A DNA stretch of 64,000 nucleotides from positions 3,712,001 to 3,776,000 of the forward strand of contig OZ252299.1 of assembly GCA_965250285.1 (NCBI GenBank). Reading direction: 5' to 3'. The stretch comes from Myxococcota bacterium (GTDB taxonomy: Bacteria > Myxococcota_A > UBA9160 > UBA4427). Both the position numbers and the translations under genes were made by a program. Position 1 is the first letter of the stretch. Each line of letters opens with the position of its first letter. The notes beneath the pieces were generated by a model, which made no database searches, had not been told where the DNA came from, and saw only the letters and a list, made by a program, of their open reading frames with translations. Below are positions 1 through 52,265 of the stretch, piece after piece.

Positions 1-771
1 CGGGGTCTCGGTCTTCTGCATGACCATGGGCATCTCACGCATCGGCCGACCAAAGCCGAGCTGGTACACCGCCCAGCTCGCCTCGAGATGATCGATATCC
101 TCGAAGGGCTCGCACATGAACGCATAGTCCTCTTCCGCGAATGCGCCCTCCGACGCCCAGAGCCTGTGCTCGTAGAAGTCGCGCACGTAGCGATGACAGC
201 GCTCGGGGGTGTCGAGCTCGGCGCGGAGTGCAGCCGGGTCCCGCCCCTGTCGCACGCGGTAGTCGCCCGTCGGGCCCTCTTCGAGGGGCGCCATCGTGAG
301 TCCGTGCGCGGCGTACCACTCGGCTTCTTCCGGCACGATCGGGGCCGCGGTGTTGAAGAGAATCATGCGGTCGACGAAGCCGGGGAATCGATTCGCCAGA
401 TCGACGATGACCATCCCGCCGACGTCGCCCGCGACGAGGCCGACACGCTCGTGGCCGAGGATCTCGTGCGCGAGCGTGTGCACATCGCGTGAGTAGAAGA
501 CGAGGTCGTACTCGTCCTTCGACGAGAGATCGGAGTCGCCGTAGCCGCGAAGATCGGGAACGATCACCTCGTAGCCGGCTTCGACGAGCGGGCGGATGTT
601 GCGCCACCAGATCCGCTTCGTCTCGGGATACCCGTGCAGCAGAACGAGCGGATAGCCACCCACACCCTCACGTACGTATGCGATTCGAAGGTCGGGCTCG
701 ACCTCGGCGAAGTGGATCTCGAACGCATCGGGGGCAGGCGTTTCGGGCTGCGCGGGGCGCGGAGCGCTCAT
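1..771 (-). CDS. Alpha/beta hydrolase, epoxide hydrolase/dehalogenase-like (3' end runs off window)
   Basis: Absent from ORF track; manual translation from ATG 771 gives MSAPRPAQ...LVLLHGYPETKRIW...PDLRGYGDS...AGDVGG (HGxP, DLRGYG and Asp nucleophile elbow). Confidence 0.85.
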   Translation of the reverse strand, partial: MSAPRPAQPETPAPDAFEIHFAEVEPDLRIAYVREGVGGYPLVLLHGYPETKRIWWRNIRPLVEAGYEVIVPDLRGYGDSDLSSKDEYDLVFYSRDVHTLAHEILGHERVGLVAGDVGGMVIVDLANRFPGFVDRMILFNTAAPIVPEEAEWYAAHGLTMAPLEEGPTGDYRVRQGRDPAALRAELDTPERCHRYVRDFYEHRLWASEGAFAEEDYAFMCEPFEDIDHLEASWAVYQLGFGRPMREMPMVMQKTETP

Positions 772-3372: not shown

Positions 3373-4316
3373 GCCTCTTTGCATGGCCGCGGCAGCTGCG
3401 CGAGTTCGGGGTGCTCGGCATGAACGCCCGCAACGTTCGGTACATCGCGCGGCACAACCCGCGTCCCCTCTACCCGCGCGTCGATGACAAGCTCGAGACG
3501 AAGCGGTTGGCCGAAGATGCCGATCTCGCCGTGCCGAAGCTGCTCGGCGTCGTCCGCTATCAGCATCAGGTCCGTGAGCTGCCCGGCTTTCTCGAAGGCC
3601 TCGACCAGTTCGTGATCAAGCCGGCGAAGGGGGCAGCGGGCAAGGGCATCCTCGTGGTGCAGGGAAGGCAGGACGGGCTGTACCAGAAGCCGAGCGGCGC
3701 GCTGGTCGGCGAGCAGGACGTGGCTCGGCACGTCACGAGCATCCTCGCCGGGCTCTTCAGCCTGGGCGGCAAGCCCGACGTCGCGATGGTCGAATCGCTC
3801 GTCCACCTCGCGCCCACCTTCGACGGCTACTCCTACCAGGGCGTGCCCGACATTCGAACCGTCGTCTTTCGGGGCTACCCGGTCATGGCGATGGTGCGCC
3901 TCTCGACCGAGGCTTCGGATGGTCGAGCCAACCTGCACCAGGGCGCCGTCGGCGTGGGGCTCGACATCGCCACCGGACGAACCCTTCGGGCCGTGCAGGG
4001 AGGCCAACCGGTCGACGCGCATCCCGACACCGGGAGCGCGTTCGGGAAGCTCGAGATTCCGCACTGGCGTGAGCTGCTCGTGCTGGCCAGCCAATGCTTC
4101 GACGTCACGGGCCTGGGCTTTCTTGGCGTCGACATCGTGCTCGACGCGCATCGAGGCCCGCTCATTCTCGAGCTGAATGCGCGCCCGGGCCTCGCGATCC
4201 AGGTCGCCAACCGCGCGGGCCTCGCGCCCCGGCTGCGCGACATCGAGCGCCTCGACGAGATTGCGAAGCGGCCCGAGGCGCGGGTCGACTACGCGGTGCG
4301 GCGCTGGGGCGCCTGA
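3369..4316 (+). CDS. Alpha-L-glutamate ligase-like ATP-grasp protein
   Basis: ATG 3369 overlaps upstream stop (ATGA); GVLGMNARN, VDDKL, FVIKPAKG, GVPDIR, ANLHQG, LELNARPGLAIQ. Confidence 0.9.
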   Translation: MSLFAWPRQLREFGVLGMNARNVRYIARHNPRPLYPRVDDKLETKRLAEDADLAVPKLLGVVRYQHQVRELPGFLEGLDQFVIKPAKGAAGKGILVVQGRQDGLYQKPSGALVGEQDVARHVTSILAGLFSLGGKPDVAMVESLVHLAPTFDGYSYQGVPDIRTVVFRGYPVMAMVRLSTEASDGRANLHQGAVGVGLDIATGRTLRAVQGGQPVDAHPDTGSAFGKLEIPHWRELLVLASQCFDVTGLGFLGVDIVLDAHRGPLILELNARPGLAIQVANRAGLAPRLRDIERLDEIAKRPEARVDYAVRRWGA

Positions 4317-4411
4317 GCGAGCGTCCTCGTCGGGCGCGCTCCGGCCGAGCTGTCTCGCCCCCTCCAATCGACGGATCGACCTGTAACAATTCGATATTCC
4401 TCAAGTAAATA

Positions 4412-4445
4412 AAATACATACATCGATGAATAAATTTGCTACCGT
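4412..4445 (+). promoter_or_regulatory. Probable TetR operator plus extended -10 (leaderless start)
   Basis: AT-rich imperfect palindrome AAATACATACATC|GATGAATAAATTT (4412-4437); TGcTACCGT ends 6 nt before ATG 4452; no SD. Confidence 0.5.
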
Positions 4446-4451
4446 GCCGTC

Positions 4452-5048
4452 ATGCAGCGACGCACTCAGGCACAGCGATCGGCAGCGACCCGCGAGGCCC
4501 TCGTCGAGGCGACGCTCGATCTGCTGGTCGATCACGGCTGGGCGGGCGTCACATCGGTCGCGGTCTGCGCGCGCGCAGGCCTGACCCGCGGCGCCTTCGT
4601 GCATCACTTCGATGGGCTGCCCGCGCTGTTCGCCGCCGCGCTCGAGCACCGCTACGCCGCGCTCGCCGAAGCCGCGACGGCGCGTCCAACCCCGGCGTCG
4701 ATCACCGATCTGGTGACGTTCACGTGGGAGTCGATGACGACGATCGACTTCAAGGTCGTCATCGAAGCCTGGCTCGCGGCTGCCAACGACGAGGCCCTCG
4801 GTGAAGCCATCGGCCCCGTGATCGAGCGCTTCGCCAAGCTGGTCCATCCCGAGCAGCAGTCGGTTCTGCTGAGCGACGAGAGCGCCCAGGCGTTCTTCTT
4901 GCTCGCGCGCGAGAGCATGCTCGGGCTCTCACTCGGGCGCGCCACCAATCGGGCGCCGCTCGCCCACGAGGCCCGCGTGCTCGAGCAGCTGCACCGGCTC
5001 GCAGACCAACACGACGCCCGACTCGGGCACGAAGGAGCCCAATCGTGA
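4452..5048 (+). CDS. TetR/AcrR family regulator
   Basis: MQRRTQAQRSAATREAL...VCARAGLTRGAFVHHF HTH. Confidence 0.9.
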   Translation: MQRRTQAQRSAATREALVEATLDLLVDHGWAGVTSVAVCARAGLTRGAFVHHFDGLPALFAAALEHRYAALAEAATARPTPASITDLVTFTWESMTTIDFKVVIEAWLAAANDEALGEAIGPVIERFAKLVHPEQQSVLLSDESAQAFFLLARESMLGLSLGRATNRAPLAHEARVLEQLHRLADQHDARLGHEGAQS

Positions 5049-10468: not shown

Positions 10469-12211
10469 ATGCTCGATACCGTGATTCAGGGCGCCACCAT
10501 CGTCGACGGCACTGGCGAAGCGCCGCGCAGCGGCGACGTCGGCGTGCGCGCAGGCCGCATCGTCGAAGTCGGCGCCGTGACGGAAGCGGCGAAAGAGACC
10601 ATCGACGCACAGGGCGCTCTGCTCGTGCCCGGCTGGGTCGACGTCCACACCCACTACGACGGTCAGGTCACCTGGGACGACACACTCGACCCGTCGGCCT
10701 CGCATGGCGTGACGACCGTGGTGACCGGCAACTGCGGCGTCGGCTTCGCACCGGTGCCGCCCGGCGGCTACCAGGATCTCATCGAGTTGATGGAGGGCGT
10801 CGAAGACATCCCCGGAACCGCCCTCTACGAGGGCATGCCCTGGGGCGAGTGGGAGACCTTCCCCCAGTACCTCGCGCTGCTCGACCGTCGCGCCTTTGCG
10901 CTCGACGTCGGTACGCAGCTCTCTCACGGCGCGCTGCGCAACTACGTGATGGGGGAGCGCGGGCGCGCGAACGAAGCGCCGACCGACGACGACCTGACCC
11001 GCATGCGCGATCTGGTGGAAGAGGCGATGCGCGCGGGCGCCGTCGGCTTCTCGAGCTCGCGGCTGCTCGCGCACCGATCGATGAGCGGCGAAGTCGTGCC
11101 GGGCACCCACGCCGACGAGGCCGAGCTCGTCGCGCTGGCCGAGGGCATGCAGCGCGCGGGATCGGGCGTCTTCGAGATCATCCCGATGATCGAGGAGATG
11201 GGAGGCGAAGAGGTCTGCACCCGCGAGCTCGACCTGATCCGTCGGATCGGCGAGGCCTCTGGGCGGCCCGTGACGTTCACGACGGCGCAGCCGCCGCCGC
11301 TGCCCAACGTGTGGAAGACGGTCCTCGACTACAGCGCCGAGCAGAACGCGGCCGGCGCGCAGCTGCGGCCCCAGGTGGCCTCGCGACCCGTCAGCGTGGT
11401 CACGAGCTTGCAGACCTATCACATGTTCATGCGGCGCAAGACGTATCTGTCGCTCGAGCATCTGCCGATCGAGAAGCGCATCGCCGAGATGCGCAAGCCC
11501 GAGGTCAAGGCCGCGATCCTCGGCGACGTCGACGTACCGCCCGAGAACCCGGGCTCGATGGCGAATGCGTACATGCTCTTCAAGCTGACTGCGCCGATGA
11601 TGTTCCCGATCACGGCCCCGATGGACTACGAGCCCGACCCCGACGACCGGCTCGGGGTGCGCGCCGAGCGCGAGGGCCGGTCGATCGACGACCTGATGTA
11701 CGACTACCTGCTGGAGAATGACGGCAACAGCTTCGCCGTGATGTTCCTCGCGAACTACGCCGAGGGGAACATGGACGTGATCCACACCATGCTGACCGAC
11801 CCGCACACGATCTCGGGGCTGTCGGATGCCGGGGCCCACGTCAATCTGATCTTCGACGCCGTGGCGCCGACCTACCAGCTCATCCACTGGGCGCGCGATC
11901 GCAAGCGCGGGCCCAAGCTCCCGGTCGAGTTCGTCGTGCACAAGCAGACGGGCAACAACGCCGAGCTCTACGGCTTCAGCGATCGCGGCACGATCGAAGT
12001 GGGCAAGCGTGCCGATCTGAATCTGATCGACTTCGACAACCTCGGCCTCGGCGAGCTCGCGGTGCACCACGATCTTCCGGCGGGCGGCAGCCGCATCCTG
12101 CAGCCCGCAACCGGATACCTCGGCACGTGGGTCAACGGGGTGCGCACGCGGGATCACGACACCGACACCGGCGCGCGCCCCGGCCGCGTCGTGCGCCCGG
12201 GCCAGGCCTAG
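10469..12211 (+). CDS. N-acyl-D-amino-acid deacylase family amidohydrolase (copy 1)
   Basis: SD GAGGAG, ATG 10469; [51 protein letters not shown]. Confidence 0.92.
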   Translation: MLDTVIQGATIVDGTGEAPRSGDVGVRAGRIVEVGAVTEAAKETIDAQGALLVPGWVDVHTHYDGQVTWDDTLDPSASHGVTTVVTGNCGVGFAPVPPGGYQDLIELMEGVEDIPGTALYEGMPWGEWETFPQYLALLDRRAFALDVGTQLSHGALRNYVMGERGRANEAPTDDDLTRMRDLVEEAMRAGAVGFSSSRLLAHRSMSGEVVPGTHADEAELVALAEGMQRAGSGVFEIIPMIEEMGGEEVCTRELDLIRRIGEASGRPVTFTTAQPPPLPNVWKTVLDYSAEQNAAGAQLRPQVASRPVSVVTSLQTYHMFMRRKTYLSLEHLPIEKRIAEMRKPEVKAAILGDVDVPPENPGSMANAYMLFKLTAPMMFPITAPMDYEPDPDDRLGVRAEREGRSIDDLMYDYLLENDGNSFAVMFLANYAEGNMDVIHTMLTDPHTISGLSDAGAHVNLIFDAVAPTYQLIHWARDRKRGPKLPVEFVVHKQTGNNAELYGFSDRGTIEVGKRADLNLIDFDNLGLGELAVHHDLPAGGSRILQPATGYLGTWVNGVRTRDHDTDTGARPGRVVRPGQA

Positions 12212-12223
12212 GCGGAAGCTCCG

Positions 12224-12865
12224 ATGACGCGCACGCGGTGGATCTGGCTCGTCCTGGTGGGCCTCTACGCCCTCTTCTTCGGCTGGTACACGTCGTTTGG
12301 TGGCCCGCTCAGCGACGAAGAGATCGAGCACTACATGGCGATCGTTCAGGCCCGTGAGCCCGACGCCCGGCCCGCCGACCTCGAGCAGATGCGCCGCTTC
12401 ATGGAGGAAGACAGCGGCGACGACTTCGTGATGGTCAACGTGATCGACATGTATGAGACACCGCTCGCGATCGAAGGTGTCGCGCCCGGCGAGTCGAGCG
12501 ACGAGGTGCTCGCGAAGTACATGGCCTACATGAATGGCGCGCTCATCAGCCGGGCCAGTCACCCGATCTTCTTCGGCCGCGCCGCCGCACCCGCCATGGA
12601 CCTGATGAACGCCGACGGCATGGAATCCTGGACCACCGGGGCTGGGATGCGCTACCGCAGCCGCCGCGACCTGCTCGAGATCGCCATGAACCCCGAGTTC
12701 GAGGCGGCCCACAAGTTCAAGGTCGCGGCCATGCGCAAGACCATCGCCTTCCCGATCGATCCGTGGGGCCAGCTCGGCGACCCGCGCCTGGTCCTTGCGC
12801 TGCTCTTCGGCCTGATCGGATGCGCCCTCAGCTGGCGCGAGGCGGCGCGAAGGAGCCCGTCTTGA
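12224..12865 (+). CDS. Membrane-anchored hypothetical protein (DUF1330-like core)
   Basis: N- and C-terminal TM helices; FVMVN...YMAYM...MRYRSRRDLLE...HKFKVAAM. Confidence 0.65.
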   Translation: MTRTRWIWLVLVGLYALFFGWYTSFGGPLSDEEIEHYMAIVQAREPDARPADLEQMRRFMEEDSGDDFVMVNVIDMYETPLAIEGVAPGESSDEVLAKYMAYMNGALISRASHPIFFGRAAAPAMDLMNADGMESWTTGAGMRYRSRRDLLEIAMNPEFEAAHKFKVAAMRKTIAFPIDPWGQLGDPRLVLALLFGLIGCALSWREAARRSPS

Positions 12866-15814: not shown

Positions 15815-16453
15815 ATGATCACGCTCTACGGCGCCAACGCGTCCCCGTTCGTTCGCAAGACCATGGCCGTGCTCGCTCTCAAGCAGGTCCCCTATGAACA
15901 CGTACCGTCGATGCCGTTCTCGGGCGACCCCGAGCTGGCCAAGGTCAGCCCGCTGAGCAAGGTGCCCGCGCTGGTCGACGGCGATCTCAACATCGCCGAC
16001 TCGAAGGTCATCTGCCGATACCTCGAGACGGCCTACCCCGACACGCCCGTGTACCCGACCGACGAGCAGCAGCGCGCCCGGGCGGATTGGCTCGAGGAGT
16101 ATGGCGGCACCGTGCTCGCCGAGTCGGCGGCCGGCATCTTCTTCCACCGCTTCATGGTCCCGAACGTGTTCAAGCGTCCGGTCGACGAGGAAGCCGTGAG
16201 CAAGATCATCGACGAAAAGCTGCCGCCGCTGCTCGACTATCTCGAGAGTCAGGTGCCGGCCGATGGGTTCATCTTCGGCGACCTCACCGTCGCCGACCTG
16301 GCCCTCGCCTCTCCGTTCGTCAACGCGGGTTACGCCGGGTACACCGTCGACGCCGAACGGTGGCCGAACTTCGCAGGCCTGGTCGACCGCGTGAAGGCGC
16401 ACCCGGTCATGGCCGAGCTGCTGAAGACCGAAGCGGCGGCGTTCGGCGGCTAG
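15815..16453 (+). CDS. Glutathione S-transferase
   Basis: SPFVRK, SPLSKVPAL, DSKVICRYL, TVADLA. Confidence 0.92.
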   Translation: MITLYGANASPFVRKTMAVLALKQVPYEHVPSMPFSGDPELAKVSPLSKVPALVDGDLNIADSKVICRYLETAYPDTPVYPTDEQQRARADWLEEYGGTVLAESAAGIFFHRFMVPNVFKRPVDEEAVSKIIDEKLPPLLDYLESQVPADGFIFGDLTVADLALASPFVNAGYAGYTVDAERWPNFAGLVDRVKAHPVMAELLKTEAAAFGG

Positions 16454-16694: not shown

Positions 16695-18143
16695 TCAGTG
16701 CGGCAGGATCTCGCGGATGAAGTCGTTCGTAAAGCGTCCCTCGGGATCGGCGTCGCGCGCGGCCGCCGTGAATTCGTCGACGGCTGCATCGCCGTAGAGT
16801 CGTCGCACGTCCTCGGCGCTGAGATAGAAGAGCTTGCCGAAGTGCGGACGGGCGTCGAAAGCGGCAGCGAGGGCGCGCGTCAAGAACGATGCGTAGGCTT
16901 CGAACGGCCCGATCTCGCGGGCGTAGCTGAAGAAGCTGATCGTGTAGACCGGGCCGCCCGACGACTGCGAGAGCAGTGTGTCGTCGCGTTTCACACGCCG
17001 AAATGACATCGGGTAGTTGAGCGTGAAGGTGCCGCTTTGCTGCTCGAGCTCATCGCGCAGACTCGCTCGATCGAGCGCCTGCGCGACGGCTGTCGGCGGC
17101 TCGACCGGCTCGCCGGCGAAGCGCTGCGTCACGAACCGGACGAGCGTCGCGGCCGATGCGATGTGATGTTCGGGCACCGCGATCTCGCACTCGACGTGGC
17201 GATAGAGATGGTGCGCGAGCGTCAAGGCCCGGTCGCTTCGATCGAGCTTCGGCGTGTTGCGCAGCAGCAGAGGGCCCACGGCCACTCGGTAGAGCCACCG
17301 CAGCCGCGCTGGGCGGTCGAGGAGGTGCCCCGCCTTCGACATCAGCCAGTGAAAGCCGTGGTCCACGAACGCGAAGTAAGCGGTACGCCGGAGCCAGGCG
17401 CGCACGCGCGCGCGGCGTGATGGCGGACCGATGACCGGATGGCGGTGGAAGGCGACGAATCGCCAGTCGAAGGGCAGCCACAGAAAGTACTGAAGCGGCT
17501 CGGCCCCCAGCTGTTCGAGCACGTCTTCGATGCGGGACCACCGTTTCACGCGCTCACCCACGGTGTACTGACGCCGGCACGCGATGCGAACGCCGACGAC
17601 GAGCCCGAACGCACCGAGCCCGCAGCGCGCGGCCAGGAGCGCTCGCATGGCGCGTTCGGCATCTGGCTCGTCGGGATCGACGTCGTCGAGCGAGAGGGTC
17701 TCGACGACGGCTCGCCCGTCGCGAAAGCGCGCGATCTCGAGCCCGCGAACGTGGTGCGAGATCGAGTGCTGCCCGGAGCCATGGGTCCCCGTCGCGATGG
17801 CGCCCGCAATCGTCTGCTCGAGCACGCCACCGATGGCCGGCAGCGTCGCGTCGGCATCTTGTTGAAGGACGTGCACGAGCTTTCGCATCGTGCATCCCGC
17901 GCCCACCCTCGCTTCGAGGCCACCGTCGTGGCTCCGTGCGAGCTCGACCGAGTCGAGCCGCGACAGATCGACCAGCACCTGATCGACCTCGATCACCCGG
18001 CTCCACGAGTGCAACGAGCCGATCGCACGAATGGATCGGGTGCGGTGCTTCTCGAGCACGCGCAGCACCTCGCGTACGCTCGAAGGTCGCTCGATTTCTT
18101 CCGGGTCGAGCAGGACGTTGCCACCGAAGTTGCGCTTCGACAC
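16695..18143 (-). CDS. FAD-binding oxidoreductase (VAO-type, aldonolactone-oxidase-like)
   Basis: GTG with SD GGAGG; NFGGN, RAIGSLHSWS, QTIAGAIATGTHGSG, RPHFGK, DPEGRFTN. Confidence 0.88.
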   Translation of the reverse strand: MSKRNFGGNVLLDPEEIERPSSVREVLRVLEKHRTRSIRAIGSLHSWSRVIEVDQVLVDLSRLDSVELARSHDGGLEARVGAGCTMRKLVHVLQQDADATLPAIGGVLEQTIAGAIATGTHGSGQHSISHHVRGLEIARFRDGRAVVETLSLDDVDPDEPDAERAMRALLAARCGLGAFGLVVGVRIACRRQYTVGERVKRWSRIEDVLEQLGAEPLQYFLWLPFDWRFVAFHRHPVIGPPSRRARVRAWLRRTAYFAFVDHGFHWLMSKAGHLLDRPARLRWLYRVAVGPLLLRNTPKLDRSDRALTLAHHLYRHVECEIAVPEHHIASAATLVRFVTQRFAGEPVEPPTAVAQALDRASLRDELEQQSGTFTLNYPMSFRRVKRDDTLLSQSSGGPVYTISFFSYAREIGPFEAYASFLTRALAAAFDARPHFGKLFYLSAEDVRRLYGDAAVDEFTAAARDADPEGRFTNDFIREILPH

Positions 18144-18409
18144 CGGTGCGCCTCCATACTCGGCGGGGCGGGCGATGCTGCGCGCCCTGCCCGGGACGCC
18201 TCCGATCCCACACCGGCCCTCGCAGGCGGGACGCGGTCTTCGCGTGGTCGGCTTCGACCACGTTCGATGTTCGACCTCGCGCTCCCGCATTTCAACCGCT
18301 CATTTCGTATCCCAGACGACACGGGGCGCACGCCGCGCGGTGATAGAATCAGAGCAGCGTCCGACGAACGTGCCGTTTTGCAGCTGGTCCTGGAGCCCTC
18401 CCCCCGCTC

Positions 18410-21076
18410 ATGGCATTCAGAGTCAAGATCCCCTGGCTGGTCGATGTGTTCCTCGTCTGGCGTCCACTCGAGATTCGAGAGCTCGAGGCGACCGACGCCA
18501 TCGACCGCCCCGTGCCCGATGCAGGCGCATGGCTCAATCGGCGCATCGGCCGGCGTATGGATCCCGGCCTGCGCTTCGACGGCGTGTTGCTGCGTGTCTT
18601 TCGCAGCCGTGACGACGTGACGCGACGCGGGCCGAACGGCCGAAGCGCCCGGTTCTCTGGACTGCCGACGCACGACCCCGCGCGGCGCGCCCACCTCGTG
18701 TCGCAGCTCGCACGCTACGTCGCGGGCTACCCGGGGCCCCGCAGCGTCGGCAGCCTGATACAGGAGGCGCTCGGCACCCAGTTCGTGCCCGAGTACCGGT
18801 CGACCGAATCGCTCTACGCGGCGGCGCGGCGTATGGAGCGATGGTTCGGGATCGGGTCTGCTCTGGGGCTCGGCGCGCGACGACTCGCTTCGGCTCGGCG
18901 ACGCCTCCACTCGGCCGCCGCCGGCGACCTCGACTGCTTTCATGCAACGACCTTCGCCGTACACTCGGCGGTCGACGCCATCGAGCGGATGCGCGCGCAC
19001 GTGCTCGACGACCGAACACGCCGGCTCGCCGCTCTCGAGGCCGTCGATCGTTGCGCCCGCCCGCCGAAGCGGGCGCTGCGCACGAGCGTCCGGGCGTTTC
19101 AGCCGAGCTTCCGTCGCTCCCCGCTTCCTGCGCATGTCCTCGTCGTCTATGCCACGCGACGCGCGCATCGCATCGATTCGACGCTCGTCGATCCCTTCGC
19201 GGGCCACACGTGGAGCGAGTGCCCCGGCGATGACATGGTGCGCGCCCTGCTGCGCGACGTGTGGGAGGCGCGCCGCGCCGACTACCCGATCATCGCCCCG
19301 CGCGTGTGGTGCTATGAGCGGCTGGCACGGTTCGTTGGCGAGCGGCTACTCGGCGCCTTCACGTGGCACAAGCTGCCGGGGCTGCTCGGCGTGACGCGCC
19401 TCGTCGGCTTCCGCACGATCCTGCGCGAGCGCGTGCTCCTCGATGGCCAGCCCGCAGCCCAGGGCCCCGCCCCCACCCCGACTCGCAGCCAGCTCGCCCA
19501 CCGCAGCGCCGACGGCACGTTCAACGATCTCGACGTGCCCGACATGGGCGCCGCGGGACAGCGCTTCGCACGCAACGTCCCGCCCACGGCGCCGGCGGCG
19601 GGCGACTTGCTCGACCCCAATCCCCGCGCCGTGAGCGCCGCGCTCATGACACGAAAAGCGTTCGTCCCGGCGCCGACGCTCAACGTGCTGGCCGCGGCAT
19701 GGATCCAGTTCATGGTGCACGGCTGGTTCAACCACGATCCCGACGAGCACCGCACGATCGCACTCAGCCCGTCCGGTCATGCCGACGACCCATTCGGCGA
19801 GGCGACACTCGACATCCCCGCGAGCAAGCCGTCGCCCAGCCAAGTCGGTGAGCCCGAGAGCCTCGGTCCGTTCTTCGACAACACCGAGACGCATTGGTGG
19901 GATGGCTCGCAGCTCTACGGCAGCGACCCGGTGCTCGCCGAGGCGCTGCGCGCCCCCAGCGGTGGCCACCTCTTGCTGCCGAACGGCTATCTGCCGCTCG
20001 ACGAAGCCGGCCTCGAGCGTTCGGGCTTCGTCACCAACTGGTGGATCGGCCTCGGCGTGATGCACACGCTCTTTGCGCGCGAGCACAACGCGGTCTGCGA
20101 TCATCTCGCCCGAGCCCACCCGGGCTGGAGCAGCGACGAGCTCTACGGTCGCGCCCGGCTGGTGATCGCGGCGCTGATCGCGAAGATTCACACGCTCGAG
20201 TGGACCCCGGCCATCCTCGACCAGCCGGCGCTTCATCTCACCGGGCTCACGACATGGCAAGGCGTGCTCCGCCGGCTCCCCGACCACGTCTTCCCCCGCG
20301 AACGTTTCCGATCGGATCTCTGGCGCGGCGTGCCCGGCTCGGAGTCGACGCATCACGGCGTCCGCTACGCGATGACCGAAGAGTTCGTGTCGGTCTATCG
20401 CATGCACCAGCTGCTGCCCGACTGGTTCGAGTTTCGCCGCGTCGAGGACGACGTCGACGTCTGCGGGGCGGGCCTCGACCGTTTGCTCGGGGCGGACGCC
20501 GCCCGCGTCCTTCGGCGCGTCGGCCTCGAGAGCAGCTTCTATTCGCTCGGCATCGCCCATGCGGGTGCGATCGTGCTCGACAACTTCCCCGCGACCCTCC
20601 AGCACTTTCGACGCGCCGGTGAGTTCGACCTCGACCTTGCGGCCGTCGACATCCTGCGCGACCGCGAGCGGGGCGTGCCCCGCTACAACGCATTCCGCGA
20701 GCGGCTGCTGCTGCCCCCGATTCGTCGCTTCGAGGATCTCACCGACGACCGCTCGCTCGTGCAGCGGCTGAAGGCTGCCTACGGCGACGACGTCGACAAG
20801 CTCGACCTCCAGGTCGGGATGTGCGCCGAGGCCAAGCCAGCTGGCTTCGGTTTCGGCGAGACGGCCTTCCGCGTGTTCACGCTGATGGCGGTGCGGCGGC
20901 TCAAGAGCGACCGCTTCTTCACCACCGACTACAACGAACAGACGTACTCGCGCGAAGGGCTCGAGTGGATCGCGAACAACACCTTCGCGAGCGTCCTGGC
21001 GCGTCACGTCCCAAGCGCCGCGACGCGCGCGCAGCAGGCCGCGAACTGCTTCGCGCCGTGGCCGACGAACCGCTGA
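18410..21076 (+). CDS. Peroxidase-cyclooxygenase family heme enzyme (alpha-dioxygenase-like) with about 290-aa N-terminal extra domain
   Basis: RSADGTFND, AAAWIQFMVH, THWWDGSQLYG, REHN, HTLEWTPAI, EEFVSVYRMH, RDRERGVPRYN, RRLKSDRF. Confidence 0.88.
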   Translation: MAFRVKIPWLVDVFLVWRPLEIRELEATDAIDRPVPDAGAWLNRRIGRRMDPGLRFDGVLLRVFRSRDDVTRRGPNGRSARFSGLPTHDPARRAHLVSQLARYVAGYPGPRSVGSLIQEALGTQFVPEYRSTESLYAAARRMERWFGIGSALGLGARRLASARRRLHSAAAGDLDCFHATTFAVHSAVDAIERMRAHVLDDRTRRLAALEAVDRCARPPKRALRTSVRAFQPSFRRSPLPAHVLVVYATRRAHRIDSTLVDPFAGHTWSECPGDDMVRALLRDVWEARRADYPIIAPRVWCYERLARFVGERLLGAFTWHKLPGLLGVTRLVGFRTILRERVLLDGQPAAQGPAPTPTRSQLAHRSADGTFNDLDVPDMGAAGQRFARNVPPTAPAAGDLLDPNPRAVSAALMTRKAFVPAPTLNVLAAAWIQFMVHGWFNHDPDEHRTIALSPSGHADDPFGEATLDIPASKPSPSQVGEPESLGPFFDNTETHWWDGSQLYGSDPVLAEALRAPSGGHLLLPNGYLPLDEAGLERSGFVTNWWIGLGVMHTLFAREHNAVCDHLARAHPGWSSDELYGRARLVIAALIAKIHTLEWTPAILDQPALHLTGLTTWQGVLRRLPDHVFPRERFRSDLWRGVPGSESTHHGVRYAMTEEFVSVYRMHQLLPDWFEFRRVEDDVDVCGAGLDRLLGADAARVLRRVGLESSFYSLGIAHAGAIVLDNFPATLQHFRRAGEFDLDLAAVDILRDRERGVPRYNAFRERLLLPPIRRFEDLTDDRSLVQRLKAAYGDDVDKLDLQVGMCAEAKPAGFGFGETAFRVFTLMAVRRLKSDRFFTTDYNEQTYSREGLEWIANNTFASVLARHVPSAATRAQQAANCFAPWPTNR

Positions 21077-21111: not shown

Positions 21112-22515
21112 ATGCACGCGAACTACGAGGTCAAGAACTGGGGCGGCACGATCACGTCGCATCCGTCGCGACTCGAGCGACCGTCGTCGATCGACCAGAT
21201 CCAAGACATCATCCGGAACGAGCGCGACTACCCGTCGCCGGTGCGTGCCGTCGGCTCGAATCACTCGACGACGCGATGTGGCGTCGCCGACGGCGGGACG
21301 CTGCTCGAGATGTGCGACGTCGACCACATCCATGTCGACCCCGACGCCTGCGAGGTCACCGCAGGCGCCGGCGCGATCTACATCGACGTCGCAGAGGCCG
21401 TGGCCGAGCACGGCTTCCAGCTCTTCGTGAACCCCGAGATCGGCAACGTCTCGGTGGGCAGCGCGTGCTGCGGGGGGACGAAGGACGCGTCGATGCCGGG
21501 TGAGAAACCCCAGCTCTCGAGCTACTGCGTGCGCATGAAGGTCGTCCGATCGAACGGCACGATCGCGACGATTCACGAGGGTGATGACGAGATGCAGATC
21601 ATGCGATCGAGCTACGGCATGCTCGGCATCGTCTACGAAGCCACCTTTCGCATCAAGCCGACCGTCGCAATGCGGTTCTCGCACGAGAGCATGAGCGTGG
21701 AAGCGTTCATCCGAAACTTCGACGAGATCAGGCAGAAGCCCTGCTCGATGATGCTCTACGTGCTGCCGTTCCGAGATCGCATCGTCATCGAATACCGCGA
21801 AGAGGTCGAGGATGGCCCCTTCTTTCGCAGCGACGCGCTGAAGTGGTGGCTACGCAACAAGGTCTGGAGCTTCATCGCGCCCGCCTTCGGCCGACTCTGC
21901 TCGTTCTGGATCCCGTTTCGACGCCCACGCTACGCGTTGGTCAATCTCTTCAACGATCTCGTCATCTGGGTGCTCTGCAATGTGCTCGAAGGCCGGGGCA
22001 GTCACCCGAAGGATCAGATCATCCGGTATCCCGACAAGGGAGGCTGGGGGATGTACACGTTCAGCATCTGGGCGTTTCCCGAGGAGCGGTTCCCCGAGAC
22101 CGTTCGAGACTACGTCGCCTTCTGCAAGCGCTACGACCGCGACCATGGGTACCGGTGCAACATGCTGAACGTCGGGTACCGCTTCGCTCAGGACGAGGGC
22201 TCGATCCTCTCGTACTCGTACACGGGCGACATGTGGAGCCTCGACGTGGTCTCGACGGGCGACGACGGGTGGGACCGCTTCGTTTGGAGCTACAACCGCT
22301 TCTGCAGCGAGAAGCGGGGCAAGCCGCTCTTCAATCAGACTCGCTCGATCACGCCCGAACAGGCCGCGGACGCTTTCCCCGGCCTGCTGGAGCAGTACCG
22401 CCAGGCGATCCTCGACCAGCCGAACTACGAGCGATTCCTGAACCAGTACTTCGCGTGGCTTCTGCGACTCTCGCCGGCATCGGCGGCCGTGCCGGGCGCA
22501 CCCGGCCAACCGTAG
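21112..22515 (+). CDS. FAD-binding oxidoreductase (VAO-type)
   Basis: SD GGAGG; NWGG, VRAVGSNHS, SSYGMLGIVYE, GKPLFNQ. Confidence 0.85.
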   Translation: MHANYEVKNWGGTITSHPSRLERPSSIDQIQDIIRNERDYPSPVRAVGSNHSTTRCGVADGGTLLEMCDVDHIHVDPDACEVTAGAGAIYIDVAEAVAEHGFQLFVNPEIGNVSVGSACCGGTKDASMPGEKPQLSSYCVRMKVVRSNGTIATIHEGDDEMQIMRSSYGMLGIVYEATFRIKPTVAMRFSHESMSVEAFIRNFDEIRQKPCSMMLYVLPFRDRIVIEYREEVEDGPFFRSDALKWWLRNKVWSFIAPAFGRLCSFWIPFRRPRYALVNLFNDLVIWVLCNVLEGRGSHPKDQIIRYPDKGGWGMYTFSIWAFPEERFPETVRDYVAFCKRYDRDHGYRCNMLNVGYRFAQDEGSILSYSYTGDMWSLDVVSTGDDGWDRFVWSYNRFCSEKRGKPLFNQTRSITPEQAADAFPGLLEQYRQAILDQPNYERFLNQYFAWLLRLSPASAAVPGAPGQP

Positions 22516-22554: not shown

Positions 22555-23643
22555 CTACGTGGTGGGTTGCTGGTGCGGATACCCGCCCTGGATCCACTCG
22601 TCGATGAGGCGGGTCACTTCGGCGGGCGCCTCCTGCTGCATCCAGTGCCCGCACGCCACGGTATGAACCTGCAGCGGCAGGTTGGCGTGGTTGATCATCC
22701 AGTCGGCTCGTTGGGGCGGCACCAGGGGGTCGTACTGGCCCGCGAGAAAGAGGATGGGGACGGCCTGGCTCTGCGCCGCGGTCGGCGACGGCGTGTACTG
22801 CGTCGGCTTCTCGGGCGGCGTCGACGTCGCATTTGCCTCGGCCTGGCGGTACGCGCGCCAGTCCGACCCGAGGTTGCGGTACCAGTTGATTCCGCCGGTG
22901 AAGCCGGTGTGGCTGTACATGTCGATGTAGACCCGAATCTCGTCTTCGGTGAGAAAGGGGAGATCACCGAGCGGCGGATCGTCGAGGAAGATGCCGACGG
23001 GCAGGACGACCAGCTTGTCGCCGAAGACCTTCATCAGCTGGGGAAGCGTCTTCGTCGTCGTTCTCAGGATCGTGCGAAAGACGCGGCCGACGTCTCCCTC
23101 GAGGACTGTCTCGGCCACCGCGTCGTTCGGGAGGACATCACTCAGCTGGCGCTGGAAGCACACGACGTAGTTCTCACCGCCGCGCTTGGCGGCCAGCGCC
23201 TCGATCGGGTTGATCGCGAGCTTCTCTCTCATCGGAATGTTGAGTGAGACGATCGCCTTGCAGAGGCCCGGCTGCATCGCGCGCATCGCGTACGCAAGAT
23301 TGCTGCCCATGTCGTGCCCCACGAAGACGGCCTGTTCGATCTCGAGCTCGCGAAGCAGCGCGACCATGTCGCCCACGAGCGTCTTCATCTGATACTTCGA
23401 GGCGTCCTTGGGCGCGGTCGTGTCTGCGTAGCCGCGCAGGTCGGGGGCGATGGTGCGGTAGCCCCGCTCCCCGAGCGCTTTCAGCTGGTGCCGCCACGAG
23501 TACGCCATCTCGGGAAAGCCGTGAAGGAAGACGATCGCGGGCTTCTCGTCGCTCGGCTCGATCTTGTCGGAGTGCTGGTACACGCACATCTCGATCTCTT
23601 TGTCGATCTGCACGATCGTGTGCGGCGCAAAGTCGAGCGGCAT
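22555..23643 (-). CDS. Soluble epoxide hydrolase-like alpha/beta hydrolase
   Basis: HGFPE, PDLRGY, GHDMG, TGGINWYRN, CGHWMQQE. Confidence 0.9.
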   Translation of the reverse strand: MPLDFAPHTIVQIDKEIEMCVYQHSDKIEPSDEKPAIVFLHGFPEMAYSWRHQLKALGERGYRTIAPDLRGYADTTAPKDASKYQMKTLVGDMVALLRELEIEQAVFVGHDMGSNLAYAMRAMQPGLCKAIVSLNIPMREKLAINPIEALAAKRGGENYVVCFQRQLSDVLPNDAVAETVLEGDVGRVFRTILRTTTKTLPQLMKVFGDKLVVLPVGIFLDDPPLGDLPFLTEDEIRVYIDMYSHTGFTGGINWYRNLGSDWRAYRQAEANATSTPPEKPTQYTPSPTAAQSQAVPILFLAGQYDPLVPPQRADWMINHANLPLQVHTVACGHWMQQEAPAEVTRLIDEWIQGGYPHQQPTT

Positions 23644-23797
23644 CGGGGCGACCTCTCCTCGGTCAGTTGAGAAGTCACCATACCCGACGCGTCCCCTCGT
23701 CGACGGAGCGGTTCGAAGAACTGCAAACCGATTTACACACTGGCGCGAGACCGCGTGGGGTCTGCGCCTCACCCCAACACGGGGCGTTCGGGCTTCG

Positions 23798-25595: not shown

Positions 25596-26234
25596 ATGCG
25601 GCCCTTGGTACGTCTGGCCTCCCATGGAGGCCTGCGAACGTCGCTCTTGGCGTTCGTGTTCATCGCGGCCCTGGCAGTGGGAGGGTCGGCGGCAGCCGGC
25701 ACGATCCTGCCGGGCCAATACTTCCTGCTCGATCATCCCGATGGTGAGATCAGCCCTCCGCCGTACGGCTTGCGGATGGACGATCTCGGGTACACGTTCA
25801 GCACCGAGCTCAATGGTGCGAGCGTGATCCTCGACTGGGACGATCTCGCGGGAACCGCCACGATCAGTGGCACGCTCTGGAACAACCAGCTCAGCGAGCT
25901 GTGGACCGTGAGCTACACGCTGACCGGCGTCGTCGCAGAGCCCGGCAATCTGGGCTTCAAGGCGAGCGCGGGCAGCGGCTTGCTCACCGATCCGCTGCTC
26001 AACGACACGGTGCTGACCGGTGAGTCGATGGGCGGGGGTGGCCCCGTCTTCGAGTTCCTCGCCGACGGCTATCGAATCTCGGGCGACAACGACACGCCCG
26101 TGGGACGCGGCTGGCTGCTGCCGGCCGGGTCGACCGATGACTGGCTCGTGACCGCGGTGCCGGTGCCCGAGCCGACGACCGCGCTCATGCTCGGACTCGG
26201 TCTCGCCGTGATGGGTGTTCGACGACGCAACTGA
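25596..26234 (+). CDS. PEP-CTERM surface protein
   Basis: Signal peptide; C-terminal VPEPTTALMLGLGLAVMGVRRRN. Confidence 0.9.
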   Translation: MRPLVRLASHGGLRTSLLAFVFIAALAVGGSAAAGTILPGQYFLLDHPDGEISPPPYGLRMDDLGYTFSTELNGASVILDWDDLAGTATISGTLWNNQLSELWTVSYTLTGVVAEPGNLGFKASAGSGLLTDPLLNDTVLTGESMGGGGPVFEFLADGYRISGDNDTPVGRGWLLPAGSTDDWLVTAVPVPEPTTALMLGLGLAVMGVRRRN

Positions 26235-26560
26235 CGCAACGCAACGCAGCAACGTATTCGCGCCATCGAAGACGCGCTCCGGCCGACCGGCCAGGGCGCG
26301 TCTTCTTCGTTCGGGCCCGGCTCTCCGGGTGAGGATGCAGCACGCGCTGCGTCACGGCCCGATCCGCCCGCCGATCGGGACGGTCGTGCGAGGCGCACCG
26401 GCCGCCGGCCGCCGGCTGCGCTTCAGTGCGTCGTTTCACCCGCGCCCGCGCGGGCGGGCACGCATCATGCCTATGTGGGCCCTTCGATATCGATTGAGTC
26501 GAACACACGGGTACGCGTAGGATGTGGAAGGCCGCATCCACCCACCCTGAGGATCCCGAC

Positions 26561-28126
26561 ATGACCCGCTCGGTTCGACTGTGCCTCGCCCTGCTCCTGC
26601 TCCTCGTCACGCTGCCGCTTCTCGGTACGAAGTGCAGCAGCCCCTTCCTGCGCGCCGGCGTCTGCAAGCGCGACATCACGCCCATCAGCCCTTCGCTCGC
26701 GTCGGCGTACGAAGCGCAGTTCGGCGGCGTGGCCGAGGTGAATCACACCGATCCCGTCTGGATCGCAGGCTTCGGCAGCGGTCGCGCTGCGACCGGGTAC
26801 AACGATCAGATCTGGGCGCGCGGTCTGGTGCTCGAGGGGCTCGGTCAGCGCGTCGCGATCGTGTCGCTCGACCTGATCGGCTACCTGAACGGCGAGGTCG
26901 ATACGATCCGCGCCCTGGTCTCCCCCGACAGCGAGATCGACTACGCCGTCGTGACCAGCACGCATCAGCACGAGGGTCCCGACACGATCGGCATCTGGGG
27001 CCCGAGCGAGCTGGAGACCGGGATCGACTTCGGATACCTCGACTTCGTGAACGAGAGCGTCGCATCGTGCATCGATGAGGCCGCAGAAAACCTCGAGCCC
27101 GCCCGCGTCAAGTTCGCGACCACCGACAGCGTCGGTCTCAGCCTCGGCCTCGACGTCGAGGACGACGGAGACGGCGTGGCCGACAGCCGCGTCCTCGTGG
27201 GCGACGACGAGATCGCGCCCGACACCGACGGGCGCATCGTCGACTCGCGCCTGTCGATCATGCAGATCACCAAGCGGTGGGGAAAGAAGGACGTCCTCGC
27301 GACGCTGGTCAACTTCGCGAGCCACCCCGAGAGCCTCGGCAGCAACAACACGCTGATCACGAGCGACTTTCCGCACTACGCGCGTGAACGCATCGAAGCC
27401 GACGCGGGCGGAACGGCGATCTGGGTGAGCGGCGACCTCGGCGTGCTGCTCGGCCCGCTCGACATCGACGTGCTCGACCCCGATACGAACGCGCCCGCCG
27501 TGCGCCGCACCTTCCGATGGGCCGAGGTGCACGGTGACCAGCTCGGTGAGCGCGTCGTCTCGGCGATTCCGAGCAAGCGAGGTTCGTCGTTCGGCCTGCT
27601 TCGCTACTCGACGAACCCGACGGTCCCGGTGCGACTCGACAATCCGTACTTCCGCTTCTTCATCGCGATCGGCGTGCTGAACCCGCGTCTCGATCTCTTC
27701 ACCGATGGAGAGCCCGATGACGGCGTCGGCTTCCCGTACCCGCCGCCCTTCGACTCGATCCCTCTGGCGACCGGCGACGATCTCCAGACCGAGGTGGGTG
27801 TCTTTGCATTGAACCACTCGAGCTTCGCCGTCGTGCCGAGCGAGCTCGACCCGCAGATCGGCGAGCAGTACCGGGCCGCCATGACCGGCGCGGATCACAC
27901 CTTCATCATCGGGCTCGGCAACGACGAGATCGGCTACCAGCTGCCGGCCGAGAAGTGGGACGACAGCTGCCACGCCTGCGCGCCGTTCGTGCTCGGGGGC
28001 GTGCCCGAGCTGTGCCCGCTGTTCCCGAACATCGACTGCAACACGGTCTTCCAGAACAACGTCGGGCAGGAGGTGGATCCGACCATCTCTGCGGCGCTCT
28101 ACCCGCTCATCGAGGAGCTTCACTGA
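26561..28126 (+). CDS. Neutral/alkaline ceramidase-like secreted hydrolase
   Basis: Signal peptide with Cys; RAGV..DITP, STHQHEGPD, NFASHPE, GLGNDEIGY. Confidence 0.7.
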   Translation: MTRSVRLCLALLLLLVTLPLLGTKCSSPFLRAGVCKRDITPISPSLASAYEAQFGGVAEVNHTDPVWIAGFGSGRAATGYNDQIWARGLVLEGLGQRVAIVSLDLIGYLNGEVDTIRALVSPDSEIDYAVVTSTHQHEGPDTIGIWGPSELETGIDFGYLDFVNESVASCIDEAAENLEPARVKFATTDSVGLSLGLDVEDDGDGVADSRVLVGDDEIAPDTDGRIVDSRLSIMQITKRWGKKDVLATLVNFASHPESLGSNNTLITSDFPHYARERIEADAGGTAIWVSGDLGVLLGPLDIDVLDPDTNAPAVRRTFRWAEVHGDQLGERVVSAIPSKRGSSFGLLRYSTNPTVPVRLDNPYFRFFIAIGVLNPRLDLFTDGEPDDGVGFPYPPPFDSIPLATGDDLQTEVGVFALNHSSFAVVPSELDPQIGEQYRAAMTGADHTFIIGLGNDEIGYQLPAEKWDDSCHACAPFVLGGVPELCPLFPNIDCNTVFQNNVGQEVDPTISAALYPLIEELH

Positions 28127-35311: not shown

Positions 35312-35470
35312 GGCTTGGCCCGAGGCTGGCCCGGCGGTCGAAGCGACCGGGCGCACAGCTCGGGCACGGTGCGCGCCCGGCCACGGCGGACCATGGGTCG
35401 CTCAAGAGGGCCTCGGGCGTCGCGCCGCAGACCGCTTGGATCTTCGCCACCCCGCATCTCGGGAGACTCG

Positions 35471-51935: not shown

Positions 51936-52265
51936 GTGTTCCTCGCGTCGGCTCACTCGACGAATCGCCGTCTTCCGCCCGGACGGCCGACTTCACGTCG
52001 ATCAAGATACCAGGACGGCTCGCCTCCGAGCGGATCGCGAGGGCGTGAGGAGAGGTAGCGGAGCGCTCCGCGACTCGGAGGTCGCGGGGTCTCGCTCGTC
52101 GCAGGGCCCGGCTCGCCGGCTGCTCGCGACGCACACCCGATCCGGCCCGTTCGGGCCGTCTCCGAGTGCACGCTCGGCGCGAGATCGGGCGTAACCTCGA
52201 GCGCGCCAGGGCGTATCGAGATCTGCGACCCGCGATGTCGCAACGCCTCGCTGAGGAGGGACTCG

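Follow-up and report, generated by a model that had tools for sequence, protein, structure and literature searches.

Contig OZ252299.1 of a Myxococcota bacterium contains, between positions 3,712,001 and 3,776,000, the 64,000 nucleotides that were analysed here and are called the window below (68% GC). At 18410..21076 of this window lies a gene for a protein of 888 amino acids (aa) in which two different enzymes seem to be joined. The C-terminal part resembles the alpha-dioxygenases (alpha-DOX) of plants, and the N-terminal part is predicted to have a strongly reduced cytochrome P450 fold, for which we use the term mini-P450. Among known families, Pfam recognizes in the 888-aa protein An_peroxidase alone (residues 365-875, E 1e-98), and a scan with NCBIfam gives no match. 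The solved alpha-DOX structures align only with the later part of the protein, that of rice (4kvj) with residues 318-886 on chain 43-619 and that of Arabidopsis (4hhr) with residues 298-885 on chain 38-634; therefore about 290 N-terminal residues are extra, as a first-pass annotation of this sequence had noted. The motifs quoted in that annotation are also present where it placed them: PFAGHTWSECPG with F263, W268 and C271-P272-G273, AVDRCARPPKRALR at residues 211-224, and the Tyr and His of the YRMH motif of the dioxygenase at 663-666.

The extension is a translated and conserved domain and no open reading frame (ORF) artefact of a GC-rich genome, because the coding-type composition starts at 18410, because a full-length homologue exists and because the 152 homologues of the extension align from their own Met1. 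The GC content at codon positions 1, 2 and 3 in the frame of the ORF is about 0.73, 0.55 and 0.8-0.86 from 18410 on; over 18410-19309 the third position has 0.78-0.86 and the second 0.51-0.59, the same pattern as in the dioxygenase part, and 5' of 18410 the pattern is that of another frame. The alignment with P0002, the closest homologue (a metagenome protein of 886 aa), begins at residue 1 and runs through to the end, with 53% identity, and M1 is kept in 90% or more of the 84 family members that were aligned. It could be imagined that translation starts at M276 (nucleotide 19235), giving a normal alpha-dioxygenase of 613 aa preceded by a chance open frame of 275 codons. The N-terminus would then have the length of that of plant alpha-DOX (residue 318 falling on chain residue 43), and GC-rich genomes do carry long spurious ORFs. 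Nevertheless, this can hardly be the case: an internal start is refuted by the codon composition, by the Leu that P0002 has at this position, and by the homologues in 152 representative clusters, and fused ORFs recur in independent assemblies (P0002, P0121, P0122, P0142, L099). A composition filter over all ORFs retained 18410..21076 and dropped the overlapping minus-strand ORF 17993..19207, which was thereby ruled out as a gene replacing the N-terminal domain.

The N-terminal domain is almost certainly a real P450-fold domain, judged from its predicted structure. The AlphaFold2 (AF2) model, based on an 84-sequence family alignment, has a predicted local distance difference test score (pLDDT) of 91.1 and a predicted template modelling score (pTM) of 0.89. 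Foldseek gives 131 matches in the PDB at E<=1e-3, and all of those listed are cytochromes P450 (best E 2.6e-5), with TM-scores normalised to the query of 0.40-0.63 and a high root-mean-square deviation (rmsd) in Foldseek's own alignments. Realignment of the Foldseek top 1000 with VIA-align results in Z-scores of 18.0-19.1 at an rmsd of 3.2-3.8 A, with 269-282 of 295 residues aligned. Furthermore, a VIA-align scan of 48,161 representative chains, independent of Foldseek, shows a sharp break: 96 chains reach Z>=8 and only 97 reach Z>=5. The best 50 of the 96 are all P450s (Z 16.6-18.8, 259-280 of 295 residues), among them allene oxide synthase (AOS; 3dam, Z 17.7), the peroxygenase CYP152N1 (17.5) and P450nor (17.0). 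Over both looks the rmsd is 3.2-4.1 A. In a language-model atlas, used as a lead only, 21 of the 30 nearest clusters carry PF00067 (score 0.92). The P450 similarity of the N-terminal domain that the first-pass annotation had suspected is thus found, all the matches listed for the AF2 model being P450s; its remark that the domain is much shorter than a P450 also stands, with some 290 aa, or 60-110 residues fewer than the matched chains.

The model has a beta1 sheet, a helical core, a long I-helix and an L-helix, and the stretch of P450 chains that it covers begins in the beta1 strands, at about residue 29-38, and ends some 24 residues beyond the haem cysteine. On the basis of the DSSP secondary structure, the elements may be assigned in P450 order: beta1-1 and beta1-2 at 2-16, B at 19-27, C at 41-54, D at 90-104, E at 113-122, F and G at 133-169, I at 174-199, K at 208-215, beta1-4 at 222-226, beta1-3 at 244-247 and K' at 249-255, followed by a short meander, the Cys loop and L at 274-291. 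The N-terminal segment of full P450s is missing, and so are most of the meander and the entire C-terminal beta-sheet region; stand-alone and C-terminally fused members end right after the L-helix. C271 stands immediately before helix 274-291, at the place of the proximal cysteine at the N-terminal end of the L-helix, and the structural match extends 24 residues beyond it. In BM3 the matched range is 38..424, and its haem ligand, which we take to be Cys400, likewise lies 24 residues before the end of that range. Folded at full length (pLDDT 88.5, pTM 0.80), the protein shows the same secondary structure in its N-terminal domain as when this is folded alone, and the pTM of 0.80 over 888 residues suggests that the two domains take up a defined position relative to each other.

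Within the family, R33, W268, C271 and P272 are invariant in all 84 aligned members, so that the C271 singled out in the first-pass annotation is strictly conserved; H178, P219 and R224 each occur in 83 members, A273 in 80, F263 in 78, and R67, R72, Q118, G122 and W285 in 76-78. The Cys loop has the family signature F-x4-W-[SAN]-x-C-P-A. The I-helix carries the motif H178-A-T-x-I-A-V-H185-(N/S)186, with Asn in 69 of the 84 members and Ser186 in the window protein. PGIS, plant AOS, the linoleate diol synthases (LDS) and EAS typically carry an Asn in the axial position, though it is dispensable (PMC13049297). From fold and conservation, it seems likely that the mini-P450 binds haem through a cysteine thiolate. 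Searches of NCBIfam and the PDB by sequence likewise gave no relatives: 14 family members had no match in NCBIfam, and the PDB, searched by sequence with the domain and by family profile, no meaningful one. The best family-profile match in the PDB, a short PdxS stretch at E 0.0035, was taken as chance.

The C-terminal domain belongs to An_peroxidase (PF03098) and is within this family closest to the solved alpha-DOX, with E values of 1.2e-113 for 4kvj and 1.4e-105 for 4hhr versus 2.7e-28 for lactoperoxidase and 2.6e-14 for COX-2. H437, H594, W598, T599 and F659 correspond to H157, H311, W315, T316 and F375 of the rice enzyme (the chain numbering being the native one +3), and Y663, H666, F823 and R829/830 to Y379, H382, F552 and R558/559. 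In rice alpha-DOX, Y379 is the catalytic tyrosine, H157 the distal and H382 the proximal haem ligand; H311 together with R559 binds the carboxylate, T316 sets the position of C2, and two phenylalanines, F375 and F552, stack on the tyrosine (PMC8720084). The catalytic Tyr, both haem His, the His and Arg for the carboxylate (H594, R830 with R829) and T599 are thus all present. In an alignment of the query with 49 bacterial homologues of 45-51% identity, all the residues mentioned are invariant except H437, which is kept in at least 90% of the 50 sequences. Because the catalytic and carboxylate-binding residues are conserved in this alignment, the domain is taken to be a true C2-oxygenating alpha-dioxygenase and not one of the fungal 8R/10R type. 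The analogy with the fungal Ppo/linoleate diol synthases drawn in the first-pass annotation therefore holds in part: a dioxygenase is joined to a P450-fold domain, but the dioxygenase is of the alpha-DOX (C2) type.

Table 1. Features of the fused gene, of its neighbours in the window and of locus L017 in genome G359 (last four rows)
Feature	Position	Strand	Basis
Whole gene, mini-P450 plus alpha-dioxygenase, 888 aa	18410..21076, stop included	+	ORF, coding composition, AF2, full-length homologue P0002
Predicted mini-P450 domain, aa 1-292	18410..19285	+	AF2; Foldseek and VIA-align matches all P450; family of 152 representatives
Long central helix, aa 174-199, assigned as I-helix	18929..19006	+	DSSP; column counts; position relative to haem presumed
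K-helix to beta1-4 segment, aa 208-226, AVDRCARPPKRALR, with P219 and R224	19031..19087	+	Column counts, hhalign
Cys loop F263-AGHT-W268-S-E-C271-P272-G273, predicted haem-thiolate ligand loop	19196..19228	+	Invariant W268/C271/P272; L-helix next
Linker and first dioxygenase helix, aa 293-317	19286..19360	+	pLDDT falls to 66 over 291-300; helix 297-313
Alpha-dioxygenase-type haem dioxygenase domain, aa 318-886	19361..21067	+	4kvj, 4hhr, Pfam An_peroxidase
His437, equivalent to distal haem His157 of rice alpha-DOX	19718..19720	+	Alignment; role as in PMC8720084
Y663-R-M-H666, equivalent to rice Y379/H382, catalytic Tyr and proximal haem His	20396..20407	+	Alignment; role as in PMC8720084
R829-R830, equivalent to rice R558/R559, fatty-acid carboxylate binding	20894..20899	+	Alignment; role as in PMC8720084
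FAD-linked oxidase (FAD_binding_4), downstream, co-directional	21112..22515	+	Pfam; ATG start placed from alignment, 36 nt past the stop of the fused gene
FAD_binding_4 plus ALO-type oxidase, divergent	16695..18290	-	Pfam; 119-bp intergenic region up to 18409
Glutathione S-transferase	15815-16453		
Alpha/beta hydrolase	22555-23772		
L017: patatin-like phospholipase	3733-4743	-	
L017: 779-aa An_peroxidase with N-terminal extension of about 230 aa	7207-9546	-	
L017: mini-P450 with C-terminal tail of about 70 aa	9549-10736	-	
L017: weak DyP-like protein	10705-12243	-	

As to the coupling between the two domains, a search with the N-terminal domain among 1.84 billion proteins found 152 representatives at E<=1e-3, of which 90 reach E<=1e-10 and 4 reach E<=1e-30. 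Most of them are stand-alone proteins of 285-345 aa that align from their own Met1 to about query residue 288. All seven fused proteins found join the mini-P450 to An_peroxidase; it is N-terminal in five (P0001, P0002, P0121, P0122, P0142) and C-terminal in two (P0152, residues 624-907, and P0171, 648-931), and locus L099 contains an eighth fused ORF. In a tree built from the mini-P450 domains, the C-fused P0152 and P0171 pair together, and the six N-fused ones form two supported trios within a clade that also contains stand-alone proteins; constraining the N-fused proteins to one clade is not rejected (approximately unbiased test, p-AU 0.73). Since the domain orders are opposite, at least two fusion events must have occurred.

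The gene neighbourhood of the mini-P450 was followed in 80 metagenome loci, fetched by two conserved motifs from a 14-sequence sub-alignment of the family, and dioxygenase neighbours were detected by tblastn with the dioxygenase part of the window protein (matches of 39-51% identity). In 61 of the 80 loci, the mini-P450 gene is immediately preceded on its strand by an alpha-DOX-like gene, with a median of 22 nucleotides between the aligned ends; stand-alone homologues next to peroxidases, which the first-pass annotation had suggested looking for, do occur. Of the other loci, one has the dioxygenase downstream (in fact fused) and 18 are without it, eight of these having less than 300 bp of upstream DNA. 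When loci are merged at 90% nucleotide identity or more, 42 clusters remain; the dioxygenase adjoins in 28 and not in 14, six of which have less than 300 bp of upstream DNA. The first-pass annotation had also read the fused protein as a reversed-order analogue of the fungal enzymes. The mini-P450 is indeed N-terminal here; however, this order is that of a small clade, fusions of either order occur, and the commonest form of the pair consists of separate adjacent genes, with the dioxygenase first.

Two further arrangements bear on this coupling. In genome G359 the mini-P450 gene abuts the gene of a 779-aa An_peroxidase, with a DyP-like gene upstream and a patatin-like phospholipase gene downstream; this locus, L017 (G359:C134:3000-22900; Table 1), is possibly a one-strand oxylipin gene cluster. 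P0036 and P0118 (948 aa, from metagenomes) have an N-terminal catalase-related domain fused to a member of the same alpha-DOX-like clade. Pfam finds Catalase at 55-151 (30.4 and 28.2 bits, cut-off 25) and An_peroxidase at 416-928, and both are 48% identical to residues 276-888 of the window protein.

How could the two domains work together? Alpha-DOX makes (R)-2-hydroperoxy fatty acids, which lose CO2 spontaneously and give the Cn-1 aldehyde and some 2-hydroxy acid (PMC8720084). In fungi, 8R-, 9R- and 10R-dioxygenases have, as fusion partners, self-sufficient P450s by which the O-O bond of the hydroperoxide is cleaved, homolytically in AOS and heterolytically in LDS and EAS; plant CYP74, PGIS and TXS act likewise on hydroperoxides or endoperoxides (PMC13049297). 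By comparison, the mini-P450, with a haem-thiolate at Cys271, probably converts the labile 2-hydroperoxide of its dioxygenase without a redox partner, as far as models and gene context can indicate. In this scheme, a free fatty acid would receive O2 at C2 through the tyrosyl radical of the dioxygenase and become the 2(R)-hydroperoxy fatty acid. Left alone, the 2-hydroperoxide would decay within minutes to the Cn-1 aldehyde and CO2. The mini-P450 would take it as both substrate and oxidant, cleaving the O-O bond at the haem-thiolate iron, and the product would be steered away from decay; candidate products are a 2-oxo acid, a 2,x-dihydroxy acid or the product of a catalysed scission of C1-C2 or C2-C3.

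Such a conversion of the hydroperoxide is proposed because the two genes are almost constantly adjacent and have been fused repeatedly, in either order, because dioxygenases of the same clade are fused to a catalase-related domain in P0036 and P0118, and because an oxygen-activation motif and nearby redox-partner genes are missing. The lability of the 2-hydroperoxide would explain both the near-constant adjacency and the two or more fusions. Both the independence of a redox partner and the substrate of the mini-P450 are inferred in this way. The wider claim, that a minimal P450-fold branch of about 290 aa is a dedicated haem-thiolate partner of bacterial alpha-DOX, and that together they form a two-haem oxylipin synthase that does without redox partners and yields a new alpha-oxidation product, seems to have about an even chance of being correct.

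A mini-P450 with a haem-thiolate could also act without using the 2-hydroperoxide as its substrate. As a peroxygenase, it could use H2O2 or a lipid hydroperoxide to drive the oxidation or deformylation of a fatty acid or of the Cn-1 aldehyde; as a regulator, it could set the peroxide tone that activates the tyrosyl radical of the dioxygenase. The fold and the conserved Cys speak for these roles as much as for hydroperoxide conversion, the peroxygenase CYP152N1 scores about level with other P450s, and some family members are without a dioxygenase neighbour. Alpha-DOX needs activation by peroxide, and the title of an article by Zhu et al. (2013) is said to speak of such an activation. We nevertheless consider these roles rather unlikely, as a coupling to one dioxygenase clade that is both tight and repeated suggests the hand-over of a labile intermediate, and the parallel catalase-related fusion of that clade points the same way. 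Nor was a carboxylate anchor of the Arg type, as is typical of CYP152, identified, although no residue-level examination was made.

A conventional monooxygenase would instead use O2 and NAD(P)H, be fed by a separate ferredoxin and reductase, and hydroxylate a fatty acid or a product of alpha-oxidation. The P450 fold itself is in line with this, and the genome, with its 47 PF00067 matches, presumably contains the redox partners. It is quite improbable all the same. The (A/G)Gx(D/E)T oxygen-activation motif of the I-helix is absent and helix 174-199 contains no acid-alcohol pair, the corresponding residues being H-N/S. Neither in the window nor in the loci inspected does a ferredoxin or reductase gene stand beside the gene, with one exception: in L101, which has no dioxygenase, a 4Fe-4S protein is encoded at a distance of about 2.3 kb. 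Furthermore, large surface parts of P450s, to an extent of about 60-110 residues relative to the matched chains, are missing.

Several points weigh against a conversion of the hydroperoxide by a haem-thiolate mini-P450, and the first of them lie in the sequence. Haem binding is something that we infer from fold and conservation only. Pfam gives no match to the N-terminal domain alone at E<=10 and no PF00067 in the whole protein at E<=1; among the 84 family members no Pfam family is matched consistently, and p450 in none; and a PF00067 scan of the whole genome (cut-off 22.8 bits) yields its 47 matches elsewhere and none at 18410-21076. The profile-profile comparison (hhalign) with nine canonical P450s of the same genome reaches a probability of 1.5% at E 0.035. 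The FxxGxR/HxCxG signature is lacking, as F and C are one residue further apart, the Gly is missing and neither Arg nor His stands at C-2; nor is ExxR found, as hhalign puts the K-helix at 209-216 and the columns aligned to its E and R are variable. Finally, the window protein deviates from its own family at three conserved positions: it has Arg62 where 79 of 84 members have Pro, Ser186 where 69 have Asn, and Gly273 where 80 have Ala.

The resemblance to a degenerate P450 Cys pocket, on which the first-pass annotation was built, is to be qualified accordingly: C271 is invariant in front of the L-helix and F263 largely conserved, but the signature around them is not that of P450s. At C-2 the window protein has Ser, and thus S-E-C where fungal P450s retain H-x-C, and the nine canonical P450s of the same genome retain F-G-x-G-x-H-x-C-x-G. 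Its K-helix/PP..R reading fares similarly. Residues 209-255 are the sole stretch that hhalign aligns with the nine P450s, and they fall exactly on the region from the K-helix with ExxR..PP..R to beta1-3, with P219 and R224 nearly invariant in the family; ExxR itself is absent.

Since all the classical sequence motifs of P450s are missing, as is the C-terminal beta-sheet region, which closes off the active site, the domain could also be a haem-free module with a P450 fold, serving a structural, membrane-docking, substrate-delivery or regulatory purpose, in which the Cys has another role. This seems improbable to about the same degree as a conventional monooxygenase. The invariant Cys is placed exactly at the ligand position, the invariant or nearly invariant R33, R67, R72, R224 and H178 are of the kind that holds the haem propionates in P450s and may do so here, and the lasting conservation of a stand-alone protein of about 290 aa fits an enzyme better.

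Other points that count against hydroperoxide conversion concern the coupling. Alpha-DOX enzymes from plants and from cyanobacteria act without a partner (PMC8720084). The 80 loci were selected by motif, and many come from related soil samples, so that they are a biased and non-independent sample. Moreover, 36 of the merged clusters have 399 bp or more of upstream DNA, and 8 of these are without a dioxygenase neighbour; the mini-P450 family is therefore not tied to alpha-DOX in every case. In two of the loci without dioxygenase, L079 (4270-6216) and L040 (1411-4615), an Old Yellow Enzyme (Oxidored_FMN) directly follows the mini-P450; L040 also encodes a RoxA-like dihaem cytochrome c. Other loci without dioxygenase adjoin transporters, or a thiamine-diphosphate enzyme together with a Zn-dehydrogenase. 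The dihaem cytochrome c peroxidase family includes the oleate dioxygenases of Pseudomonas.

Among the closest known systems are the fungal dioxygenase-P450 fusions (Ppo/LDS; with LDS, AOS and EAS activities). They likewise have two haem domains, a tyrosyl-radical dioxygenase from the peroxidase-cyclooxygenase superfamily, which makes a fatty-acid hydroperoxide, and a P450-fold partner with a Cys ligand, which is predicted here; in the fungal enzymes the P450 isomerises the hydroperoxide and is independent of a redox partner (PMC13049297). The differences are considerable, however. The P450 fold is N-terminal in the window protein, and the fungal order occurs in P0152 and P0171 only; the domain has about 290 aa and no PF00067, FGxGxHxCxG or ExxR; the host is a bacterium; the dioxygenase is nearer to alpha-DOX (E 1e-113) than to COX-2 (E 3e-14); and the usual form is two adjacent genes. 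With the plant and cyanobacterial alpha-DOX enzymes (4KVJ, 4HHR, CalDOX, LepDOX), the C-terminal 570 residues align end to end, and the equivalents of His311, Arg559 and Thr316 are kept. Those enzymes are, in contrast, single-domain proteins of about 580-640 aa, described as working alone, and no partner gene is mentioned in the part of PMC8720084 drawn on here.

On the P450 side, CYP74 AOS/HPL, CYP8A1 and CYP5A1 have the fold in common with the mini-P450 (Z 17.7 for 3dam), and the Asn that most of the family has in the I-helix, where an oxygen-activating Thr would stand, resembles the axial Asn of AOS and PGIS. There is, however, no detectable sequence relationship to them; the domain is about 150-200 residues shorter, the window protein has Ser at the position of the Asn, and the Cys loop W-S-x-C-P-A is unlike the loops of CYP74 or CYP8. 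The best structural matches are compact P450s, namely CYP175A1 (Z 18.8, 271 residues, 3.6 A), CYP119 and CYP134A1 (Z 18.8). These have 354-397 residues in their solved chains and carry the Pfam signature, whereas the mini-P450 starts at about chain residue 29-38 and stops at about 360-374, at the end of the L-helix, which makes the family about 100 residues shorter. A second haem protein beside or fused to a fatty-acid dioxygenase is also found in systems with a catalase-related haem fold that handles fatty-acid hydroperoxides, such as the AOS-lipoxygenase fusion of corals and the Nostoc 10S-DOX with its catalase-related lyase; their fold is that of catalase with a Tyr-ligated haem, different from the Cys-bearing P450 fold here.

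Fungal dioxygenase-P450 fusions and cyanobacterial alpha-dioxygenases are thus already known. What appears to be new, as far as sequence comparison and structure prediction reach, is a dioxygenase-plus-P450 oxylipin module in which the host is bacterial, the dioxygenase is of alpha-DOX type and the P450-fold family is minimal and an orphan at the sequence level. In the part of it drawn on here, a review of February 2026 treats DOX-CYP fusions as fungal, and for cyanobacteria names only 10S-DOX and alpha-DOX (PMC13049297). In the open-access papers searched, no account was found of this family, of a P450 fold of about 290 aa or of a bacterial alpha-DOX/P450 pair.

If hydroperoxide conversion is true, the dioxygenase-plus-P450 logic of the oxylipin pathways of fungi, plants and animals would reach bacteria and alpha-oxidation, whose hydroperoxide has so far been treated as a dead end that falls apart. 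If the mini-P450 binds haem and is driven by the hydroperoxide alone, it would set a new lower size limit for the P450 fold, the smallest working scaffold known, and an attractive small one for peroxide-driven biocatalysis. Bacterial alpha-DOX enzymes are being developed for the production of fatty aldehydes (PMC8720084), and the products of such systems could be altered by a partner gene that has been overlooked and that lies directly downstream in most loci. Cultured carriers, Halomonas ventosae and its relatives, make the question directly testable.

The family itself seems to be rare and patchy in its distribution, which would fit a gain of the whole gene by transfer, to judge from the homologues found. 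The carriers with names are Halomonas ventosae, H. ramblicola, H. rhizosphaerae, other Halomonas spp. and Billgrantia gudaonensis. Their proteins are annotated in the sources as hypothetical or uncharacterised, with one UniRef entry named 'DUF4388 domain-containing'. The mini-P450 domain occurs in 2 of 401 genomes sampled from the phylum of the window, namely the window's own (G000) and G359, and in none of 401 sampled from the phylum to which G427 belongs. Among 60 related genomes no homologue of the N-terminal domain was found, and three other matches have E values of 3e-4 to 1e-3 over 63-141 residues; nor was a close orthologue of the alpha-DOX found in these 60, but only peroxidase paralogues of 33-40% identity. 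One weak match over 36 residues from a profile search of genome contigs (L014) was put down to chance, as its genome is without a family member. Nine members of 416-550 aa (P0164, P0169, P0196, P0200, P0210, P0211, P0230, P0254 and P0260) have 100-250 extra C-terminal residues without a Pfam match, and the mini-P450 part is N-terminal in all of them except P0254. In the window's genome (6.25 Mb), the 47 PF00067 matches represent roughly 44 canonical P450 genes, unusually many for a bacterium; one of these lies in the window (35315-36724, +).

The fused gene is flanked by genes for FAD-linked oxidases (Table 1). The nearest solved relatives of the downstream one are L-galactono-1,4-lactone dehydrogenase and xylitol oxidase, and a FAD_binding_4 homologue (28% identity, E 3e-51) is encoded directly upstream of the fused gene of L099 (2200-3978, +). 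In the two fused loci examined, the fused gene therefore has a FAD_binding_4 oxidase of the aldonolactone/alditol-oxidase type as its neighbour, on the downstream side here and on the upstream side in L099. It is possible to speculate that this conserved oxidase acts on the product of the mini-P450 and the dioxygenase.

At L095 a thiamine-diphosphate enzyme (11-1648, +) and a Zn-dependent dehydrogenase (1868-2947, -) are encoded near a stand-alone mini-P450; the thiamine-diphosphate family includes the 2-hydroxyacyl-CoA lyase of alpha-oxidation. MlaD/MlaE lipid-transport genes lie near the mini-P450 in L095 and L101. The ORF upstream in L095 was considered as a dioxygenase and rejected, since it resembles DUF3034. 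In the window, a few genes from the dioxygenase, 26522-28126 (+) encodes a protein with a weak match to the N-terminal part of neutral/alkaline ceramidase (29.2 bits, cut-off 32.1), and a PEP-CTERM protein is encoded at 25596-26234. Further away, at 50796-51956 (-), lies a gene for a SABATH-type SAM-dependent carboxyl methyltransferase (Methyltransf_7, E 2e-26), an enzyme of plant type in a bacterial genome.

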